Source of the DNA: a virus
DNA: 64,000 nt
IMG/VR virus record: IMGVR_UViG_3300020048_000017
Coordinates: 115,179 to 179,178 of that record
Strand: one strand, 5' to 3'
Of this stretch, positions 5,003-58,115 are shown one piece after another. How positions within the stretch are numbered: position 1 is the first letter of the stretch; each line of letters begins with the position of its first letter. The position numbers were made by a program, and so were the translations under genes. The notes below the pieces were generated by a model. That model was not told the origin of the DNA. It ran no database searches and saw only the letters and a list, made by a program, of their open reading frames with translations.

Positions 5003-8000
5003 GCCGTATTAACAACCGAAGGAGCAAGTTTGTTGTTTCTGGCGAAGTTGTCGAGACCTCTTTGAAGTTGTTCTTGAAATTTAGCAAACTCAACATTAAC
5101 AAGTTTTTCAACCTCTTGATTTTGACCACCATTGAAGGAAACATTAACCTCTAAAGGTCTTCCGCCATCAAGTCTTAAAGAAGTTTGAGAAGAACCTGAG
5201 GAAGACCCTTGTTTTAGTTTTTCTATTTCTTCTTTTAGTCTGTTTAATTCAGCAGGTGTCCCGTCCTTGTTTTCGATACGATTTTGTTTTAGGTAAATAG
5301 AATCCATTACCTCTCTAGGTAGAGCTGGTTTAACAGGACTATTAGAAGGCATAGGAATTAAACTCTGCCCTTCAGACATTCTAGAAAGGTTTTCGTCAAT
5401 TAATTTAAGATCAGCCTCTAGCTCTTTTATTCTATTTTGAGCTTGAGGCTTTCTTAAAACCTTTCTGTCAATACTAATATACGGATTTATATCCTGCTTA
5501 CCTTCACTTCTATAAAGTGCCGATTCCTCCGGATACGTTTCAGGCATATTACGCGCCCATTCATCTATCTTCTCATTGATCTCATTTTGTCTTTCAGGAA
5601 TCACAGAAGTTCTATCAACTGCCACTAAGTTCCGCTTTAGATTTTTTATTTTTGTAGACAATTTCCACGCATATTCAATGAGGGCGTTATGTTGCTCTTC
5701 AGAATACTCTATTTTTTCAGGAGCACTATTAGGGTCACTTTTAGGGTCACTTTTTTCGACCGAGGCTTTTTCGCGAGCACTTTTTTGAGCGTTAATTTCC
5801 CCCAACTGCCCATCCAGATCATTAATTCTATTTAAAGTATTGGCGACTTTATCACCCTCCATTCCAAAGTTTTCTTTAACAACTCCAGCTCCAGAAAATG
5901 TATCAAAAGCAACAGGGTTTTTAACCGGATCGTTAAGCAAAGCATTTCTTTTCATAACTTGTTGGGCCGCCGCTTTTCCCAATTGAGTATCAGATGTTCC
6001 TCCAGCTCTTTTTTGAGCAGCTTCGTCGGCAGTATCTTGAATAATTCTACTCTTGCGTTCTCGCTCTTCTTTGGTGGCGTTTGCGTTAGCTATAATTTTA
6101 TTATAAGCTTCCTTACGTTTATCCTCTGGGGTCTTATATTGATCAAGAGGATTTGGAACAGCAGGAGTAGGAATTGTAGGAGCAGGAACCGCAGGAGCAG
6201 GAACCGCAGGAGTAGGAGCAGGAGCAGGAACCGCAGGAGCAGGAGTAGGAGCAGGAACCGCAGGAGTAGGAGCAGGAATTGTAGGGGCAGGAGCGGGAAT
6301 TGTAGGGGCAGGAGTAGGAATTGTAGGAGTGGGAATTGTAGGGGCAGGAGTAGTTTTGTTACCACACTCGCACGCTTGTATTTCTTTTATTAAATCAGTT
6401 AAACGCTTATTAGAAATCTCTTTTAAGATTTTAATTATTTCTTTATTTTCATTAGAATTGTCATTACTAAATTTTTGAGTGATATTTATCAATCTCGATT
6501 CTTCAGAATGACCACCGACAGGAACGACCCCTCCAGCGGCAACTTTTGAAACTTTACCTAAGCTTTTTAAATTTTGAAGACCGCCGATTCTCTTCAACAT
6601 ATCTCGGTTAAAGATAGAATCCTGACCAGATCCTTGGAAATTCTCAACTAAGAATTCGTCCGTATTTGCAGTGACTCCATTTTTTAACAACACCGGAGAA
6701 GCTGAGGGCCTAGCTCCTCCTACACCACTATTTATAAAGGATTTTTCTAATACTTTCGGCAACATTCCTCCAGCCGAAACTTTCGAGACGCTACCCATAT
6801 TTTGAAGGTTTTTAAATCCGCCAATATTACGAACCATTTCTCTATTAAAGATGGCGTCTTTTTTCGACCCTCTAAAATTCCTAACCAGATATTCGTCAGT
6901 GTTAGCAACGATGCTTTCTTTTCCGCTTCCGGTGTTAACTCCATTCAGTAAAACTGGTTTGGCGGAAGACCTAGCCCCACCAACTCCTTTAGAGATTAAA
7001 GAGCTTTCCAAATCCATTGGAAGAAATCCAGATGCAAGAGACGGCGTGGCGGGGACTTGTAGTTGGGTCCGTAATGTTCTTGTTTTTTCTATTTCCCTTT
7101 CTAAAACTTTTTCAAGTGATTCAATTTCTTTCTCTAATTCTTTAATTCTTTCTGGAGAGGCTTTAGGAGCCTTTTCAATCTTCGTATTAACACCGTAACC
7201 AGTTGCTATAGATGTAGTTTCGTCACGTTCTGCTTTCGCAGCTTCGATTCTGGAAGTTAAGTTTCTTTGACTTATAATAGAATTCGACACTTTTTCTTGA
7301 ACATTTTTTATCTTGACTTCTTCAAGAGCTTTTCTTCTTCCGCTGACCGAATTTTCAGACTCAATAAACTCATTTTGCAGGGCTCCGAATTTGTCATCGA
7401 TTGCTTGTAAGAAATCTGCGGCATCTTCTGTGTTTTGTCTTATTTGATCTTGAACATCTTTTTGCCCAGCTAGAGCAATCATTGCGTCAGCAGCTTCGCT
7501 TAAAGCGTTCTTTCCAGATTCTTTATCGATAACAGCTTCTCCGAAATCAGAAATTCCGCTTTCATCATTATCAGCCCTTACTCTAGAGATATTTTTCTCA
7601 GCTTCAGACTTTGATCCTTTTAAAAGATTGAAATCTAATACAGATTGTTTATCTTTTGATTTGGAAATTATGTCTCCTAGAGGATCTAGACTTATACTTT
7701 CGAGAGGGACTCCAGATTTTAAAGCATTTTCGATTTCCTGTGTGATTTTTTTGAAATCTTCCCTCTTAGAAACATCGCTTGGGGTTCCGCTTTTGAATTT
7801 TGAAAAATCATTTTGGAAAGAGGACCTAGCTTGTGTTGAAACTAAATTAGCTAAATCTTTAGCAGCAGTTTTTCCTTCAGGGAAAAGTTTAGATATTTGA
7901 TCTTTTGCGTCTTTACCCAGAGCTTCTTTATCTCCGCCTTTTGCAAGACCCTCTTCTAATTTTGACAAAATGGTAGTCCCCGCAGAGTCTACATCTTCTC

Positions 8001-11000
8001 TAACAAGTCCATTAGAAATCCTTTCGAGCAAATCATTAAGCCTCGCCGAGATAAGTTTTTTAGATATCTCAAAGCCCTTTTCGTTAAAAGATTGGGTAGC
8101 CTCTTTGTCTTTAGGTTTGTCACCTGATATAAATTCGTTAGCACTTAATCTGGCTTCGAAAAGCTTATTACCAGCCTCAAAAGGGTTACCCTTCGATACC
8201 GCGCCCAGCCCACCAAATAAGTTGGCAGTATTGGATTTTCTTATTCTTTCAAGGCTCGCAAATAGCTTCTCCCTTACTTTAGTAAGACTGTCTTCTAAAT
8301 CTAAACCCGTCGAAGAAACTTGTTCTATAACTTCTGCTGTGCCAATTTGTTCTTCGTTAGAGGCATCTTCAACAACGGTCATTAAACCCTTTAAGCCTAT
8401 ATCCCCATTTTTAAAATCGGAAAAAAGATCGTTAATTCCCTTAACTCTTTCTTGCAATTCCTTTTGAGAAATTCTAGCTTCGCTTCCTGACTGACCAGCC
8501 TGACTTACTAGGCTTTCTTTTAAATTAAATGTTTTAGACCTAGCTTCGTTGATAGCTTCCGCTTTAGCAACAGCAGCCTCAACAAAACTATCAGCAACAG
8601 AGTTTGCTCCAGATTCGAAATTATTGGTAGCTCTGAAAGATTTTAAAGAAAATTCTCGGTCAGCATTATTATTTAAAATTTTTGCAGAAAGGCTAACTCC
8701 TTTAGAAAAGTCTTGCAGTTTTTCTTTAGCTACAACTACAGCTTTAGCAACATCGTTTTCAGCTTCTACCCTTCTTTGGTTTATCGCTAAAGTTTTAAGA
8801 TCGAGAGCTAAAGTTTCAGCAAGAATACCTTTGCTTTGACCTAACTTTTCAGACCATTCTGCAACAGTAGTCGCGGCATTATCCAGACCAAGGCCTTTCA
8901 ATAGATCTTCAAAAGAACCCCCTTCTTGTAAGAATTTGTCTACGACAGGTTCAGCAGATATTGCGTTACTTGGACCAACCCCCCTGATTAGTTCGGAAAT
9001 GATTTCAGAAGATGCGGAGTCGTAGCCGATACCTTTTAAATTTTCGTCCTTGCCACTAAATAATCTAGAGATTTTTGTAACTCCGTCTATCCTTTGGTCG
9101 TCCAAAGTTCTGAGCAAGGCTCCGAACTCCTTTTGAGAAACTGTTTTTCTAGAAGGATCGGAAATTTCTTCGAGAGCCTTTTGGAACTCGCTAAATTGAT
9201 CTATTCCTTTGTCAGTCTCCTCTTTTGTAAACTGTCTTTCACTAATTCCAATTACTTTATTGCGAAGACCATCGTCTTTTATTTCAAATAAAGATTCTAG
9301 GGATTTAGAGGTTAACTCTTGTATAGAAGAGGAGCTGGCCCCAGATTTAATAGCATCGTTAAGTTGATTTAAAGAAGTGATATATCCACGAACAGAATTA
9401 ACCACTTCGTTAGTTGAATTTGCTTCCTCTTGAGCTTCTCTTTTTAAAGTTTCTGCCGACTTACCTACAGTAGAGTTATAGTCAACCACTCCTTTTAGGG
9501 CAATTCCCAGACCGGCAGCAGCAGCAGCGATTAAGCCGATTTGGTTAGGGAATGTAGCAAAAATTGCAGTAGCGGTAGACAGGGAGTTTGTCCAAGTTTC
9601 TATTTTTTGTTGCCCACCTTCGTCCGCCTCTTTTTTTAAAGCCTCTCCAGCTAAGGGGATTAAGAAGGACGCTCCGAAAGCTCCCATTTGACCCCTTTGT
9701 AAAGCGGCTCCGTATTTTGCAGATCTTTGAGCTTTTAGTTCTTGGGCCTTTATTTTTTCCGATCTAAGGTCATTTCTACGATTTCTTTCTGCAATTCTGG
9801 AAGAAAGCGTGTCGTTATAACCCTGAGTGCCAAAAACTGGTCTATTAGGATCTATGTTACGAGTCTGCCTTGCAGCTTGTCTTTGTAAATCCTGATTAGT
9901 TTTAAAATCCTTACGAGCTTTTTCTAACTCCTCGGCATCGAGCTTAGCATTAATAGCATCAAGTTGTGCTTTTTTAGCTCTCTTCTTTCTCAAAACATCC
10001 TCTGGGTCATCGGGGGGTTTCGGAGGAACAGGCCCTTGCATACGACCTTCGTTAATAAGATCTTGCTCGACTTGTTTTTTAATAGCTTCGTTTTGAAGTT
10101 TTAATTCAGCCTTCTTTCTAGTCTCGTCATAAGTAAGAAGTCCCGTATTTGTAGGCGCGGCGGTTCCAGCGGCAATTTTAGCCTTAGCTCTTAAAGATTC
10201 GTTTCTCTTCTTGTCCGTTTCCTCTTGGGTAAACTTCTTAAGAAGAGCAGCTTCTTCTAGTCTAGAAGACCTTTTAGCCGTAACGGCTTTCAACCTAGCT
10301 TCGTATTCAGGTGTGCCCTTAGAGGTTAACGGTAATACCCCTCCAGACCTTTTAGATCTAGCAGCTTCGAAAGCTTTCTTAGCGGCTAATATGGGTTTTT
10401 TCTCTTCTCTGGTTCGTCTGCCAAGTTCAGTAGAAACAATTTTAGACTCTTTTGAAATTCTTTCTAAAGTTTTTGCGTTAGCTTTTTCTTTTCTAGCAAG
10501 GGTTTTAACGGTAGCGTCAAAAGTTTCTTTCTGCGCTAAGAGTTTTTCTTTTTTGGCTGGCTTAAGAGCATCTGTTTTAGTAAGATTACTTAACTCCATA
10601 AAAGAGTCTTGTTCTAATTGATTAGAAATAATAGACGCTTTTTTTCTAGCAGAAGCCAAAATCTTTTGGTTTCGCTTTAACTCTTTCGCCATTAATTTAT
10701 TAGCTTCAGAGTATTCTTTTAAATTTTTAGCAAGCCCAATAGTTTCCTTTTCTACTTTAATAATACCTTTAGGGCCTCTTAATGGAACGTTTCCACCAGC
10801 TAAATTAGGGGTAAATCCACCAGCAGAAACTCTAGATACATCACCAAGGAATTTTAAATTTTTAAGCCCCCCAACGCTTCTTAACATGTCTTTATTAAAG
10901 ACTGCGTCAGCACCAGATCCGTTATAATTTTTAATTATGTATTCATCGGTATTCGCTACAATAGTTTCTTTCCCCGCACCAGTGTTAAAACCTTTCACGA

Positions 11001-48814: not shown

Positions 48815-49134
48815 TGATAATTGAAATTCCAGACTTTGATGAAATCGTTAACGTCAGATTTTTAGAACCTGTCTCAGTTGAGATTTGGCCTCACGGGTCT
48901 GAGGTGGATTACTATTGGGACTTTGGGATGCGGGATTTTCTGGACGAAGATTGGTTTATGCTTAAAGACTACAAATCAACTAAAGATAAAGTTATTAGAA
49001 TGTGCCAGTTCGATATAGCTCACGCATTCGGGCATATAGAAGAAGACCCAAATTACACGCACAAACATTGGGCTTTAAAAGGGTGGCTTAAGGATAGATT
49101 GAAATTTTACGAACCTGAGGAAGATTTCTCTTGA
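48814..49134 (+). CDS. Hypothetical protein
   Basis: TAATG coupling to the upstream gene. Confidence 0.55.
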   Translation: MIIEIPDFDEIVNVRFLEPVSVEIWPHGSEVDYYWDFGMRDFLDEDWFMLKDYKSTKDKVIRMCQFDIAHAFGHIEEDPNYTHKHWALKGWLKDRLKFYEPEEDFS

Positions 49135-49158
49135 CAATTCCAAATTCTAGTGTATAAT
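49131..49158 (+). promoter_or_regulatory. Early promoter TTGACA-N16-TATAAT of the Tyr-Phe-Arg tRNA operon
   Basis: Consensus hexamers. Confidence 0.8.
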
Positions 49159-49163
49159 ACAGT

Positions 49164-49193
49164 ATGACTTTCGTCCGATATCGATTTAGCTAA
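49164..49193 (+). CDS. Leaderless leader peptide MTFVRYRFS
   Basis: ATG 5 nt after the -10 element; followed by a hairpin at 49193-49219. Confidence 0.45.
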   Translation: MTFVRYRFS

Positions 49194-49224
49194 CTCAAGC
49201 GGGAACTTCTCGCTTGAGTATTTC

Positions 49225-49314
49225 GCGAGATGTTCCTTTCTGCGGATTGTAACCCCGCTGTCTTTAAATAAGTAAGGAAGTTGACGAGGGGCGCGATACC
49301 TCCATCTTGCACCA
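49225..49314 (+). tRNA. Non-canonical tRNA-Tyr(GTA) lacking a D arm
   Basis: Acceptor GCGAGAT/ATCTTGC, A73, CCA; anticodon arm GCGGA-TTGTAAC-CCCGC; TTCCTT/AAGGAA long-range pairing. Confidence 0.7.
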
Positions 49315-49323
49315 AATTTCAAA

Positions 49324-49401
49324 GGCTTCTTGGTGTAGTAGGTTGTTGCACGCGGGACTGAAAATCCCGAGGCTGGGGTTCGATTCCCTGAGTGGCCACC
49401 A
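49324..49401 (+). tRNA. tRNA-Phe(GAA)
   Basis: Cloverleaf, CGGGA-CTGAAAA-TCCCG, encoded CCA. Confidence 0.9.
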
Positions 49402-49409
49402 TTTTAAAA

Positions 49410-49494
49410 GAGTCCCTAAGCCTACCTCCGCTACGAACGGAGTCTCTTTAAACTAGGGCAAGGAAGAGTGCCAGTTCAATTCTGGGGGGACTTA
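49410..49494 (+). tRNA. Non-canonical tRNA-Arg(ACG) lacking a D arm
   Basis: Acceptor GAGTCCC/GGGACTT; CTCCG-CTACGAA-CGGAG; T arm CCAG-TTCAATT-CTGG; CCTA/TAGG long-range pairing. Confidence 0.7.
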
Positions 49495-49500
49495 TTTTTT

Positions 49501-51830: not shown

Positions 51831-51906
51831 TATCCGTAGGGGAGGAACATAATTTCCTTAGTAGCATTAGAGCTATCAAAACCGAGAATCACGGGCGCGG
51901 ATACCA
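51831..51906 (+). ncRNA. 76-nt CCA-ended tRNA-like RNA of unknown identity
   Basis: TATCCGT/GCGGATA closing stem, three internal hairpins, CCA and the array spacer ATTTAAA. Confidence 0.55.
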
Positions 51907-51918
51907 ATTTAAAAAAAA

Positions 51919-51992
51919 AGAGTGGTCGTCTAATAGTTAGGACTTCGGTAATAAGCCGAATAATCTAGGTGCAACTCCTAGTCACTCTGCCA
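51919..51992 (+). tRNA. Atypical tRNA with a 5-nt anticodon loop (AATAA)
   Basis: Intact acceptor, D and T stems, G73, CCA. Confidence 0.65.
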
Positions 51993-52000
51993 ATTTCAAA

Positions 52001-52120
52001 ATGCACCCTTACAAGCAATATACCTTCATTAAAGACGCTGGATGCTTGGTCGATTTCGACCGAGGCCAAGCCCTCTTTGACGCCTACCTTAAAGTTCGGT
52101 ATGGTCGAGAGCGATGGTGA
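52001..52120 (+). CDS. 39-aa ORF inside the tRNA array (or a structured RNA)
   Basis: MHPYKQYTFIKDAGCLVDFDRGQALFDAYLKVRYGRERW exactly fills the gap between tRNAs. Confidence 0.4.
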   Translation: MHPYKQYTFIKDAGCLVDFDRGQALFDAYLKVRYGRERW

Positions 52121-52128
52121 ATATTTTT

Positions 52129-52205
52129 GGGGTGGTCGTCTAAATGTTAGGACCCGTGGTCGTCAGGACTGCGTAATGGAGGTTAGAATCCTCCCTGCCC
52201 CGCCA
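52129..52205 (+). tRNA. Atypical tRNA-Asp(GTC)-like with a 9-nt anticodon loop
   Basis: Loop TCGTCAGGA, G73, CCA, T loop TTAGAAT. Confidence 0.65.
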
Positions 52206-52210
52206 ATTTA

Positions 52211-52285
52211 TGGGTAATCGTCTAAGTATGAGGACGCAGGGCATTTGGTCCTGAAATCTAGGATGCAAGGCCTAGTTACCCACCA
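52211..52285 (+). tRNA. Atypical tRNA (Gln-like acceptor U1-A72/G2-C71/G3-C70; loop CATTTGG)
   Basis: Cloverleaf with an 8-nt T loop ATGCAAGG; identity ambiguous (TTT or shifted TTG). Confidence 0.6.
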
Positions 52286-54343: not shown

Positions 54344-54507
54344 AAGATCAATGGATTAAATTCTGTTGTTGGTTAGGTTTCCATAAACTAGGACCTTCAT
54401 ACTCTTCCAAAATCGAGATCTTGGAAGCTGAGAGAGGGACTTCCACCTTCAGTTCGGAGAGATTGTGTGTATTGCAGAGCAACTGTCTTCTGCGGACTTT
54501 CGAATGA
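54340..54507 (+). CDS. 55-aa Cys/His-containing small protein
   Basis: MKDQWIKFCCWLGFHKLG...; ATGA overlaps on both sides; below the ORF-track cutoff. Confidence 0.5.
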   Translation: MKDQWIKFCCWLGFHKLGPSYSSKIEILEAERGTSTFSSERLCVLQSNCLLRTFE

Positions 54508-55493
54508 AACTTTTAAATAGAGACTCCTTCAGAGAATCAGTGTTCTCTCGGGATGGTAAGTGCGTCTGGTGCGGAAATCCTTACCAAGATGCTCATCATT
54601 TAATTGAGCGCCGATTATTCGAAGACGGGGGTTACTATCTAGATAACGGAGTTAGTTTATGCGGTCCATGCCACTTAAAGGCTGAATCTACAGAAATAAG
54701 CCCTAAAGAGCTTCGCCTAGCAGCAGGTATCAATACTATCGTTTTACCTGAGCATCTAGCTGCGAACACGGACTACGATAAGTGGGGCAATCAAATTATC
54801 GGCAATTATAGAATCAAAGGGGAGCTTTTTGATGACGAATCTGTGCAGAAGGTTATTAAAGACTTTACACACTTGTTTATTGACAGAATTAAGTATCCCA
54901 GAACCTTCCACTTACCTTGGTCTAAAACTAGTGGTGACGACAAAAGGCTTCAAGACACTTCTTGTTTCGAAGGAGTTGAAGTTGTAGTCTTGGAAAAGAT
55001 GGACGGCGAAAATACCACCATTTACAAAGACTGCATTCACGCGAGGTCCGTAAATAGCAAAGTGAACGCAACTCGCTCTTGGGTTGCTCAGCTACAAGCT
55101 AATATCGCAGACTCAATTCCTGAGGGTTTTAGAATCTGTGGGGAGAATTTATTTGCGCGACATACCGTTCCTTACGAGGAATTAGAATCGTACTTTTTAG
55201 TTTTTAGCATTTGGGACGGCATGAAATGTTTGTCTTGGAAAGACACTAAAGAATATTGTGACCTATTAGGATTAAAGACTGTTCCAGAAATCTTTGAAGG
55301 AACTTTTACTGAAGATATTAAAAACCTAAAAGTTAGAGAAGACCAAGAAGGTTATGTAGTTCGAAAATCGGGCGAGTTCTATTATAAGGACTTTAAAACA
55401 AGTGTCGCGAAATACGTTTCTCCGACATTTATTATTCCGGACGAACACTGGACTGAAGGACCTCTGGTAAAAAATCAACTCAAGAAAATATGA
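54504..55493 (+). CDS. HNH-domain / RNA ligase (Rnl2-like) fusion
   Basis: CVWC...AHHLIER...NGVSLCGPCH; KYPRTFHL, EKMDGENTT (KxDG), GENL, EGYVVR, AKYV. Confidence 0.82.
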   Translation: MKLLNRDSFRESVFSRDGKCVWCGNPYQDAHHLIERRLFEDGGYYLDNGVSLCGPCHLKAESTEISPKELRLAAGINTIVLPEHLAANTDYDKWGNQIIGNYRIKGELFDDESVQKVIKDFTHLFIDRIKYPRTFHLPWSKTSGDDKRLQDTSCFEGVEVVVLEKMDGENTTIYKDCIHARSVNSKVNATRSWVAQLQANIADSIPEGFRICGENLFARHTVPYEELESYFLVFSIWDGMKCLSWKDTKEYCDLLGLKTVPEIFEGTFTEDIKNLKVREDQEGYVVRKSGEFYYKDFKTSVAKYVSPTFIIPDEHWTEGPLVKNQLKKI

Positions 55494-56076: not shown

Positions 56077-56163
56077 CTGGTTGTAGCTCAGTCTGGTCAG
56101 AGCAGGCGCTTTGGATGCGTCAGGCCCAACGGGATCTCAGAGGTTCGAATCCTCTCAACCAGA
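56077..56163 (+). tRNA. tRNA-Pro(TGG) with a 17-nt variable arm
   Basis: C1-G72, A73, GGCGC-TTTGGAT-GCGTC, variable hairpin CCC-AAC-GGG, canonical T arm. Confidence 0.85.
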
Positions 56164-56170
56164 TCCAATT

Positions 56171-56196
56171 TTCACCTATCCGATACTTTTGTGTAA
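56171..56196 (+). promoter_or_regulatory. Late-type promoter TTC-N17-GTGTAA in front of the endonuclease
   Basis: Same motif as in the structural operon, 9 nt before the ATG. Confidence 0.6.
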
Positions 56197-56205
56197 TACT
56201 TTCTT

Positions 56206-57210
56206 ATGGAGGATATTAAACGAATTGTCGGAGAGTCTAAAAGTTTCGGAGATTTTTTTAGAGCTATAGGAAAAAAGTCTTATAGCGGTCAACAAAAATT
56301 AAAATACCAAAAACTTTTAAAAGATAATAATATAGATTTTGACCACTTTGAAACAAACGGGGCAAGTAAATTAAGAAAGTATGAAAAGATAACTAAAACA
56401 TGCCCACAGTGCGGCGAATCTTTCGAAACACAAAATGGTCACCCAAAAGAACTTTCGACATGTTCCCGACAATGCTCAAATATCTATTTTTCTTCAAAAA
56501 GAACTACAGAGGAAGCTAAATCAAATATCTCCAAAGGTCTTTTAAAATATTTTGGAAATACAGCCAAAACAAAAACAACTAACCAAACTAATAAAAAACC
56601 CCCGTCTGTAAGAAAAATAATAAACTGTGCAGTATGCCAAAAGAGTTTTAAACAAAAGGAAGATAGGCACAAATGTTGCTCGAAATTATGTGGGCAGGTT
56701 CTTCAATTTGGGTTTGCTCCGCTCTCAAAAATAGAAGTTATTGATGGAATTTTAGAATTAGAAAAAACTGGAGACTGGCAACAAAGAAAGGCCCCAACAA
56801 AGCTTTTAAGCGGGGCAAAAACGCATTTCGGAAGTTGGAACAAAGCTATTAAAGCCGCAGGGCTCAAACCAAATGATTCAAAATTCAAAAGAGTAAGAAT
56901 AAAGTGCATAGATGGAGATATAGTAGATAGCCTTTCTGAAAGAACAATTGACGAATTTCTTTTTAATAAAAATATAGCCCACACTATCCACAAGAAATAC
57001 CCAAATTCAAATAAAAGATACGATTTCTATTTGCCCGATTTTGATACCTATGTAGAATATTTTGGATTAACAGGAGACGAAGCTTACGATATAGCCACAG
57101 AAGAGAAGATTAAATTTTGCGAAGACAATGATCTAAAATTGATAGCAATTTACCCAACTGACATTTACCCAACACATAACCTCGAACAAATTTTCAAAGA
57201 CATTATTTAG
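56206..57210 (+). mobile_element. Homing-endonuclease-like gene (Zn fingers plus C-terminal PD-(D/E)XK-like domain) inserted in the tRNA array
   Basis: CPQCG...CSRQC, CAVC...CCSKLC; DSLSERTIDEFL...YDFYLPDFDTYVEYFG. Confidence 0.75.
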
Positions 57211-57214
57211 AAAC

Positions 57215-57285
57215 GGATCATAAGTTTTAAAGTGAAACAAGGCTCTTTTAAAGCCTAGAAGAAGGCGCGATACCTTCATGGTCCA
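57215..57285 (+). tRNA. tRNA-Lys(TTT)
   Basis: AGGCT-CTTTTAA-AGCCT; T loop CGCGATA. Confidence 0.78.
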
Positions 57286-57298
57286 TCAACTTACAAAT

Positions 57299-57373
57299 TC
57301 CTCGTAATGCACAGAGTGTGCAGCCGCCCTGTTAAGGCGTGCGAGCTTGGGGCGGTGCCAAGACGGGGAGCCA
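57299..57373 (+). tRNA. tRNA-Asn(GTT)
   Basis: CGCC-CTGTTAA-GGCG, G73, CCA; T loop GGCGGTG. Confidence 0.8.
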
Positions 57374-57382
57374 ATTTTAATT

Positions 57383-57589
57383 ATGAACACACAAATAGCA
57401 AAACTAAAAGCGGAAGTTCTTAACGGAGCAAATCGGGAAAAAGCACTAGCAGAGCTAATTGCTATTTGCGAGCACGAAGCATTTGACAAAGGTGTTGAGT
57501 ATGCTACAGTTGCTCAAATGGAAGTTCAGAAGAGAATCAAAAATTTCAAAAGAGAAAGGAAATTATCTGAGCCAGTAATGGCTTGGTAA
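57383..57589 (+). CDS. Small helical protein within the tRNA array
   Basis: MNTQIAKLKAEVL..., fills the gap between tRNA-Asn and tRNA-Leu. Confidence 0.6.
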   Translation: MNTQIAKLKAEVLNGANREKALAELIAICEHEAFDKGVEYATVAQMEVQKRIKNFKRERKLSEPVMAW

Positions 57590-57595
57590 ACAAAT

Positions 57596-57676
57596 GCGGG
57601 AGTGGCGTAATGGTAGCCGCGTGGGATTTAGAATCCCATGTCGAAAGGCGTAGGGGTTCGAGTCCCCTCTCCCGTA
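57596..57676 (+). tRNA. tRNA-Leu(TAG)
   Basis: Class II cloverleaf, TGGGA-TTTAGAA-TCCCA, A73. Confidence 0.92.
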
Positions 57677-57699
57677 TCAAAAATTTAACAAAACAAAAT

Positions 57700-57788
57700 G
57701 GAGGGTAGCACCCTTGGTGGGTAACGAGGCTTGAACCCTCGGCGAGGTCAGAGATGGCCTCAGAACTCGATATTCTTACTCTCTTCCA
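57700..57788 (+). tRNA. tRNA-Ser(TGA) with an atypical T arm and U73
   Basis: CGAGG-CTTGAAC-CCTCG, long variable arm GAGGTC/GGCCTC, CCA. Confidence 0.75.
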
Positions 57789-57871
57789 ATTTTAGATCGA
57801 GAAACAAAACAAACAACAAAATGTGACGGTTCGATTCCCTACACTTCTTTAATTTTAACAACAACTTAAAA

Positions 57872-57948
57872 TCCTTACTTGGTGTAATTGGCGAGCATCC
57901 GATCCTGTGAAGATCGTGGAGAGAGTTCGAGGCTCTCAGAAGGAACCA
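57872..57948 (+). tRNA. tRNA with GTG anticodon (His) lacking G-1/C73
   Basis: CGATC-CTGTGAA-GATCG; acceptor with a bulged A; A73; CCA. Confidence 0.78.
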
Positions 57949-57959
57949 AATTTATAAAA

Positions 57960-58033
57960 GTCGGTTTGGCGTAATAGTAGCGTAGGAGTTTTCCAAACTT
58001 CTGGCGAGGGGGCGGAACCCTCAACCGATACCA
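57960..58033 (+). tRNA. tRNA-Gly(TCC)
   Basis: GGAGT-TTTCCAA-ACTTC; T loop GGCGGAA; A73; CCA. Confidence 0.8.
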
Positions 58034-58042
58034 AATTTTAAT

Positions 58043-58115
58043 GCCCTCAAAGCTTTTATTAGATGAAGTTCCGCCTTGTAAGCGGAGGAAACCGGCGCAC
58101 TACCGGATGAGGGCT
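58043..58115 (+). tRNA. tRNA-Thr(TGT)
   Basis: GCCCTCA/TGAGGGC; TCCGC-CTTGTAA-GCGGA; T loop CGCACTA. Confidence 0.8.

Follow-up and report, generated by a model that had tools for sequence, protein, structure and literature searches.

The stretch of DNA analysed here (64,000 nucleotides (nt), hereafter the window) comes from an uncultured phage whose 179-kb genome bears direct terminal repeats; the window makes up its final 64 kb and carries two candidate transfer RNA (tRNA) genes, at 49225-49314 and 49410-49494, which depart from the cloverleaf. Judging from their sequences and those of their orthologues, both elements are probably working elongator tRNAs of non-cloverleaf form, one for tyrosine, with the anticodon GUA, and one for arginine, with the anticodon ACG, read as ICG. 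They lack a D stem-loop and possess instead a helix, here called helix A, between a short strand preceding the anticodon stem and the long variable region following it. We are confident that helix A is real, and compensatory changes preserve it to about the same degree as the anticodon stem. A further helix in the variable region, helix B, crosses helix A, and the core of each tRNA is therefore a pseudoknot if both form; that the two helices form together is somewhat favoured by the comparisons described below.

Layout of the Tyr and Arg genes

The Tyr gene (90 nt including the encoded ACCA; this and all other features given here lie on the plus strand) was delimited from its sequence and from an alignment of four orthologues, A3, and reads GCGAGAT GTTCCTTTCT GCGGA TTGTAAC CCCGC, followed by 28 nt, a T arm and ATCTTGC ACCA. 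The 5' strand of its acceptor stem (8 nt, 49225-49232) is partnered by 49303-49310, and 10 nt lie between the acceptor and anticodon stems. This short stretch holds the 5' strand of helix A, TTCCTTTC (49233-49240, with its core at 49235-49240), which pairs with GTAAGGAA (49272-49279) inside the loop closed by helix B, while 49233-34 may be a linker rather than part of the helix. The anticodon arm (49242-49258) comprises a stem of 5 base pairs (bp; 49242-46/49254-58) and the 7-nt loop TTGTAAC, with U33, A37 and the anticodon GTA at 49249-51, and helix B is formed by GTC (49260-49262) with GAC (49283-49285). The T arm (49288-49302) has a 4-bp stem, GGGG/CCTC, and a non-canonical loop, CGCGATA, and the gene is completed by the acceptor 3' strand (49303-10), the discriminator A (49311) and the encoded CCA (49312-14; 49303-49314 in all), as placed in A3. 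Non-TTC T loops such as CGCGATA were pointed out in other members of the tRNA arrays of the window by the preliminary description of this DNA, which was made from the letters alone, and the T loop of the Tyr element is likewise CGCGATA.

The Arg gene (85 nt, 49410-49494) was delimited with seven orthologous sequences and reads GAGTCCC TAAGCCTAC CTCCG CTACGAA CGGAG, followed by 27 nt, a T arm with the loop TTCAATT, and GGGACTT A. It ends on the discriminator A, and CCA is not encoded, whereas the Arg genes of loci L145 and L147 do encode it. The 8-nt acceptor 5' strand (49410-49417) pairs with 49486-49493, and 9 nt separate the acceptor from the anticodon stem. These include the helix A 5' strand GCCT (49420-49423), whose partner GGGC (49456-49459) stands immediately 3' of a conserved AAACTA. 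The anticodon arm (49426-49442) is made of CTCCG, the loop CTACGAA and CGGAG, with the anticodon ACG at 49433-35, and the strands of helix B are CTCTT (49444-49448) and AAGAG (49464-49468). Between helix A and the second strand of helix B lies an AAGG linker (49460-49463), followed further on by a T arm (49471-49485) with the 4-bp stem CCAG/CTGG and the canonical loop TTCAATT; the acceptor 3' strand (49486-93) and the discriminator A (49494) were placed with the seven-sequence alignment.

Thus both genes have acceptor, anticodon and T arms, as the preliminary description had read them, together with U33, A37 and the short gap between the acceptor and anticodon stems, and neither has the D stem-loop of the RF00005 cloverleaf. 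The gap measures 9-11 nt in every orthologue and forms no hairpin, whereas a D arm would take about 17 nt. A feature missing from that first account is the configuration of the acceptor branch. A 7/5 branch was considered and dropped in favour of an 8-bp acceptor stem with a 4-bp T stem, which makes a 12-bp branch in both genes. RNAalifold adds an eighth Tyr acceptor pair (49232 with 49303), for which three sequences have G-C and one has A-U, and the branch is therefore 8 + 4 rather than 7/5. In Arg, four sequences have G-C at the eighth pair and two have U.G, with L143 unpaired there, and most sequences carry a mismatch at what would otherwise be a fifth T-stem pair.

Neither element was reported by ARAGORN in its standard, intron and mitochondrial modes, nor by Rfam RF00005, even when a 500-nt slice was searched with the threshold relaxed to E <= 10, so that the earlier expectation that standard scanners would miss them was borne out. 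An intron was also considered as an explanation and rejected: intron-allowing ARAGORN finds nothing, and we saw no segment whose removal restores a cloverleaf.

The variable regions of the two genes both contain TCTTTAAA...AAGGAAG, and the pattern CTTTAAA(N3-12)AAGGAAG has two sites in the 179-kb genome, which are these two variable regions. Written more fully, T-S-TCT-WW-AAA...AAGGAAG is common to the Tyr (window 49261-49280) and Arg (49445-49466) variable regions, and in orthologues it takes the form TGTCTWWAAANAAG (Tyr) or TCTYWNWAAACTA (Arg). The shared motif suggests either common descent of the two scaffolds or a structural requirement common to both.

Conservation of the helices in related phages

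Orthologues were found via two upstream proteins, a 106-amino-acid protein of unknown function and a nucleoside 2-deoxyribosyltransferase-like protein, on syntenic contigs from ENA, Logan and JGI assemblies. The Tyr set comprises four sequences, i.e., the window, L143 (differing from the window at one base), L132 and L144, and the Arg set comprises seven, i.e., the window (ArgO), L129 (identical to L130 and L131), L143, L144, L145, L147 (identical to L148) and L149 (identical to L150). The Arg genes of L145, L147 and L149 were located by a custom descriptor scanner, for which Markov-chain shuffles give a background of 2-5 matches per genome; on real data it returned these genes and chance-level matches conserved in neither position nor context, apart from one common to the close relative L143. 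Neighbouring proteins among the phages carrying the layout are about 50-65% identical. MAFFT aligned the four Tyr sequences with one gap (A3). It could align neither Tyr with Arg nor the Arg subgroups with each other, and because it misplaced indels, gap-free Arg subgroups and one hand alignment were used instead.

In the Tyr genes, helix A is paired in 90.6% of cells of A3, and four of its eight pairs have changed on both sides. One of these pairs (alignment columns 13 and 51) occurs as U-A, C-G and G-C, and the strands differ widely between sequences, being TTCCTTTC/GTAAGGAA in the window, CTCATC/GATGAG in L132 and TTCCGAAC/GTTCGGAA in L144. RNAalifold, given the Tyr alignment alone, predicts helix A. 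For comparison, the anticodon stem has changed on both sides at three of five pairs, the T stem at two pairs, and the first seven acceptor pairs, which are paired in 100% of cells, at two. Over the whole structure 92.9% of cells are paired, with 11 pairs changed on both sides, against 81.2% in shuffles, of which 0/500 reached the level of A3; sliding the partners by 1-3 columns brings pairing down to 43-51%.

The Arg genes give the same picture. Helix A is GUCC/GGAC in L143, GACU/AGUC in L144, CCUUA/UGAGG in L145 and CCAUA/UAUGG in L149, and in the hand alignment its pairs 1-4 are formed in all seven sequences, each with 2-3 pair types. Across the seven sequences the helix is 91.4% paired, compared with 63.4% in shuffles (0/2000 matching it), and four of five pairs show double changes. 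The anticodon stem is 97.1% paired and has likewise changed on both sides at four of five pairs; the acceptor stem, counted as eight pairs in seven sequences, is paired in 94.6% of cells with four pairs changed on both sides, and the T stem in 95.8% with three, its loops TTCAATT and TTCGAAT being canonical. Within the gap-free subgroup A6 (ArgO, L129 and L143), helix A is 100% paired through C-G to U-A and U.G to C-G changes. Within A7 (L145, L147 and L149), the five helices are 100% paired with seven double changes, including one in helix A and one in helix B, a level matched by 0/500 shuffles.

These comparisons also bear on the pairing as it was first proposed. In both sets, helix A shows the compensatory changes between the strand before the anticodon stem and the variable loop that were expected of homologues. 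For Tyr, the complementarity between TTCCTT (49233-38) and AAGGAA (49274-79) is present, and this register stands and covaries in the orthologues. For Arg, CCTA (49421-24) is indeed complementary to TAGG (49454-57), but this is not the conserved register, because L143 has a C x A mismatch in it; the shifted pairing GCCT (49420-23) with GGGC (49456-59) is fully paired there. The differences between the Tyr and Arg strands in the window had been taken as natural covariation, an argument that is invalid, as the columns set side by side lack homology and the register used for Arg was shifted. The GG of each variable arm had been likened to G18G19 of the D loop. In Arg, the GG at 49462-63 is identical in 7/7 sequences and may act as a stand-in for G18-G19, but in Tyr the GG lies inside helix A and is unconserved (GATGAG in L132).

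Compared with helix A, helix B has modest support, and the pseudoknot of the preliminary description is upheld to that extent. In Tyr it is identical in 4/4 sequences, with a fourth pair possible in L144, and is neither supported nor refuted by covariation because it is invariant. In Arg, three core pairs are kept, and there are compensatory changes from U-A to A-U in L144 and from C-G to U-A in L149.

Several observations weigh against the proposed structure or its function. The sample is small and phylogenetically narrow, the 4 Tyr and 7 Arg sequences all coming from a single group of related, uncultured phages, and the alignment across the Arg subgroups is hand-made. Single-sequence minimum-free-energy folds often favour other structures, the proposed nested structures lying 1.5 to 10 kcal/mol above the minimum, although the ordinary tRNA-Phe between the two genes is misfolded too; helix A is present in the minimum-free-energy folds of the L149 Arg and L144 Tyr genes. 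The Tyr T loops, which are ATCGAAC and AGCGTTA in orthologues, are without the usual T-psi-C consensus. Two A x G mismatches occur in the acceptor stem of the L129 Arg copy, and the L143 Arg copy (6747-6835) has no recognisable T arm. For helix B in particular, Arg pairing is modestly above shuffles (80% vs 74%, matched by 76/2000), in the L145 group its outer pairs do not form, and a local hairpin, GCG...CGU, in L145-L149 could substitute for it.

The last points would fit functional tRNAs in which helix A forms without helix B alongside it, giving a nested, extended anticodon hairpin with a large bulge on the 3' side and no pseudoknot. The brevity of the Tyr helix B, just 3 bp and invariant, would suit such a fold, as would the loss of pairs 4-5 of the Arg helix B in three sequences, and a second family of Arg(ACG) sequences from IMG/VR, described below, has a local hairpin in its variable region and no evident crossing stem. 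On the other hand, the two independent compensatory changes in L144 and L149 fall exactly on helix B, and the cores GTC...GAC and CTC...GAG are kept in every complete sequence of both families, so that we regard the nested fold as a minority prospect.

As regards the L143 Arg copy, its acceptor stem, helix A and anticodon arm are kept with compensatory changes, and in the place of the T arm there are about 14-15 nt without a stem, TTAAAATACACAAC(T). This copy is either a truncated pseudogene or a version that dispenses with the T arm as well.

That the elements in general are decaying tRNA pseudogenes, with deleted D arms and chance pairings, is close to refuted. Standard finders reject both of them, and an apparent degenerate Tyr remnant occurs in L129 upstream of an ordinary tRNA-Tyr, as a process of decay would leave it. 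Nevertheless, five helices have been preserved by compensatory substitution in lineages with almost wholly different stems, whereas decay would let unpaired changes accumulate, and the layout is common to two anticodons and to phages with neighbouring proteins as divergent as those given above.

The fold that we propose would start from the 8-bp acceptor stem stacked on the 4-bp T stem, by which the usual 12-bp acceptor branch would be retained. A linker of 2-3 nt would lead to the helix A 5' strand of 4-8 nt, which would find its partner in the long variable region beyond the anticodon arm; 1-2 nt would separate this strand from the anticodon arm, and 1 nt would follow the arm before helix B begins. 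The variable region would run in the order helix B 5' strand, A-rich stretch (AAACUA in Arg), helix A 3' strand, short linker (GG in Arg) and helix B 3' strand, after which 2-3 nt would precede the 4-bp T arm and the acceptor 3' strand. Helix A runs on into the 5-bp anticodon stem along one uninterrupted 5' strand, and the two could stack into a branch of about 10-12 base-pair layers; the anticodon branch would thus be near the length that the D and anticodon stems have together in an ordinary tRNA. Helix B, with 3-5 bp, would close the variable region around the helix A 3' strand. With this arrangement both tRNAs may be L-shaped.

Function and genomic setting

The reading of both elements as working tRNAs is favoured by several features. 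The anticodon loops have stayed conserved next to stems that vary: the Arg loop CUACGAA is identical in 7/7 sequences, and the Tyr loop has the consensus YUGUAAM. The anticodon GUA, A37, G1-C72, A73 and the encoded CCA are kept in all four Tyr sequences, and the combination of G1-C72, A73, CCA and anticodon is the bacterial TyrRS identity set. The Arg loop is the same as the E. coli tRNA-Arg2 loop recognised by TadA. In addition, the genes stand behind a consensus promoter and a leader rich in Phe, Arg and Tyr codons, and no further Tyr(GTA) or Arg(ACG) gene was found by ARAGORN in the whole phage genome.

The region 49131-49500 contains, in order, the promoter, a nine-codon leader open reading frame (ORF) with a hairpin, three tRNA-sized genes and the start of the next ORF. 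The promoter (49131-49158) is of sigma-70 type, with TTGACA, a 16-nt spacer and TATAAT (12/12 consensus matches), and is kept in loci L129, L132, L143 and L144. Between the two unusual genes, as first described, lies an ordinary tRNA-Phe(GAA) at 49324-49401, which is found by both ARAGORN and Rfam RF00005 (53.8 bits). The three genes would be transcribed from the promoter at 49131 as a leader-Tyr-Phe-Arg unit and processed as other tRNAs are; the two non-cloverleaf products would be charged by host TyrRS and ArgRS, and A34 of the Arg product would be deaminated by host TadA.

The leader ORF, MTFVRYRFS, is followed by the hairpin (49164-49219 together) and belongs to the context of the tRNAs rather than to the tRNAs themselves. 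It is a leaderless mini-ORF directly after the promoter, with the hairpin and then the Tyr, Phe and Arg tRNA genes downstream, and it is composed largely of Phe, Arg and Tyr codons. In five lineages the peptide is MTFVRYRFS, MTFNRYRFR, MIFIRYRYRFM, MTFVRYRFS and MNFRRYRFR, with the core F-x-R-Y-R-F kept; the positions in relatives are about 10352-10400 in L129, 740-800 in L132, 6513-6570 in L143 and 5294-5350 in L144. By its composition and place, the leader looks like an attenuator that would sense the amino acids of the downstream tRNAs.

In L129, the slot between the leader and tRNA-Phe is occupied by an ordinary class II tRNA-Tyr(GUA) (10461-10542) and a PD-(D/E)XK_5 gene (10546-10938), which is what would be expected if the unusual gene does the job of a tRNA-Tyr. 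Upstream of this ordinary gene (region 10380-10940) there is a stretch, GCGG...TTTGTAATCGCCGC, resembling a broken non-cloverleaf Tyr gene. This arrangement suggests that a mobile endonuclease cassette may have replaced the unusual Tyr gene in L129.

A different function was also weighed, in which the elements are non-decoding, structured tRNA mimics that act as decoys for host anticodon nucleases or tRNA-modifying enzymes, or as regulatory RNAs of the tRNA operon. The anticodon loops are their most conserved part, as a nuclease decoy would require, some copies have weakened arms (the mismatches of L129 and the missing T arm of L143), and an RNA ligase gene in the tRNA region fits a conflict over tRNA cleavage. 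However, the acceptor stems covary, and the invariant G1-C72, A73 and CCA of the Tyr gene are needless for a decoy of anticodon nucleases. The retention of a 12-bp acceptor branch as 8/4, the ordinary tRNA-Tyr in the slot of L129, the genome without another Arg(ACG) or Tyr(GTA) gene and the leader rich in matching codons all speak against mimicry as well, and we consider it improbable.

The RNA ligase domain (PF09414) just mentioned is joined to an HNH domain in an ORF at window 54465-55493, inside the tRNA region, and its presence fits with a phage that would repair cleaved tRNAs. The tRNA arrays at window 51831-51906, 51919-52285 and 56077-58115 contain other odd members, several of them with low or absent ARAGORN or Rfam scores. 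One of them, a 76-nt RNA at 51831-51906, has a CCA end without the tRNA consensus and a homologue in L143 (about 7094-7170). Furthermore, ARAGORN calls a tRNA with the anticodon CTA (labelled Pyl) outside the window, at G000:C1:62666-62737, and another at L144:10888-10960, which could point to amber suppression or to the recoding of a stop codon.

Relation to known tRNAs and implications

Outside organelles, a cloverleaf that includes a D hairpin is, to our knowledge, regarded as universal. The closest ordinary counterpart of the Tyr gene is class II tRNA-Tyr(GUA) (RF00005; e.g., L129:10461-10542), with which it shares GUA, U33, A37, G1-C72, A73, the encoded CCA, a long variable region, a length of about 85-90 nt and, in a relative, the same operon slot. 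Unlike class II tRNA-Tyr, the Tyr gene has no D stem-loop, the second strand of a D-like helix being given by the loop of the variable arm; it is 8/4 rather than 7/5, its T loop is without T-psi-C, and it is missed by RF00005 and ARAGORN. Similarly, the Arg gene of this window shares the loop CUACGAA, a canonical T loop and the discriminator A with class I tRNA-Arg(ACG/ICG). The latter has a D hairpin with A20 and a 5-nt variable loop, whereas in the Arg gene 9 nt take the place of the D arm and are partnered by part of a variable region of 27 nt.

Among mitochondrial tRNAs, those without a D arm are shrunken, with short replacement loops and no long variable arm. Such tRNAs, including metazoan mitochondrial tRNA-Ser(AGY) and the armless nematode mitochondrial tRNAs (PMC7609411), resemble both genes in having no D hairpin. 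They differ in that a short unpaired loop and a shortened organellar tRNA characterize them, whereas the phage RNAs are 85-90 nt long and have the helix rebuilt by a covarying long-range partner. The words "pseudoknot" and "phage" are absent from the 2020 review of non-canonical tRNAs (PMC7609411). In agreement with the preliminary description, which knew of no described class with this fold, a full-text literature search found no published account of this tRNA layout.

According to Mukai et al. (2017, PMC5389517), 8/4 and 9/3 tRNAs (allo-tRNAs; (8/4) tRNA-Ser and tRNA-His) occur in bacteria and in phage tRNA clusters. The 8/4 tRNAs and allo-tRNAs (PMC5389517) have, like both genes, an 8-bp acceptor stem, a 4-bp T stem and a long variable arm. 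However, allo-tRNAs keep the cloverleaf D stem-loop, with a long stem and a tetraloop, which is absent from both genes, and the identities reported for 8/4 tRNAs are Ser, His, Cys and Sec (PMC5389517), compared with Tyr and Arg here.

Wider searches for relatives gave the following results. The shared motif (TCTTTAAA N3-10 AAGGAAG) yielded chance matches only in IMG/VR; acceptor-based and anticodon-plus-motif patterns gave chance matches or an unrelated protein-coding family in IMG/VR, JGI metagenomes and GTDB genomes; and blastn of the region and its elements against GenBank phages returned nothing relevant. Relatives found through the terminase gene were without such genes: RF00005 had no tRNA match in four of the five records searched and three ordinary tRNAs in the complete 191-kb G005. 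Further look-ups led to loci without the genes.

A structural scan of IMG/VR (CTACGAA, 32-44 nt, GGTTCGAATCC) recovered 64 loci. In 38 of them, representing 22 distinct sequences, the acceptor, anticodon and T arms are perfect or nearly so, and just 7-8 nt separate the acceptor stem from the anticodon stem. RNAalifold on 21 of these Arg(ACG) sequences shows heavy covariation in all three arms. Members of this second, widespread family (L190, L192, L223, L249 and 34 others, within L189-L252) have TAKCCNN between the acceptor and anticodon stems and a conserved GGTAACTGGA after the anticodon arm. Like both genes of the window, they have a short strand in the place of the D hairpin and a complementary strand after the anticodon arm, and they are missed by tRNA finders. 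Unlike the Arg gene of the window, to which they have no detectable sequence relationship, they are 7/5 rather than 8/4 and are without the crossing stem. Because this unrelated family exists, non-cloverleaf Arg(ACG) tRNAs are not confined to the present phage group.

As for what the layout may be good for, our leading guess is that it makes both tRNAs poor substrates for the host tRNA-cutting nucleases that act in phage defence. A bolder and tentative proposal is that phages keep a second tRNA fold, with no D hairpin, a pseudoknotted core supplied by the variable arm and an 8/4 branch, which would hide the surfaces used by nucleases and toxins and still be accepted by synthetases, EF-Tu and the ribosome. 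With similar reserve, the variable-arm motif shared by Tyr and Arg could then be read as one scaffold re-used for a second amino-acid identity.

If the two tRNAs are charged and decode, bacterial synthetases, EF-Tu, RNase P, TadA and the ribosome would accept a tRNA whose core is wired differently, and phage tRNA gene counts would be systematically too low, since ARAGORN and Rfam miss such genes. The layout would also offer a natural scaffold for orthogonal tRNAs, and it would provide a concrete case of phages shielding their tRNAs from host tRNA-targeting immunity.

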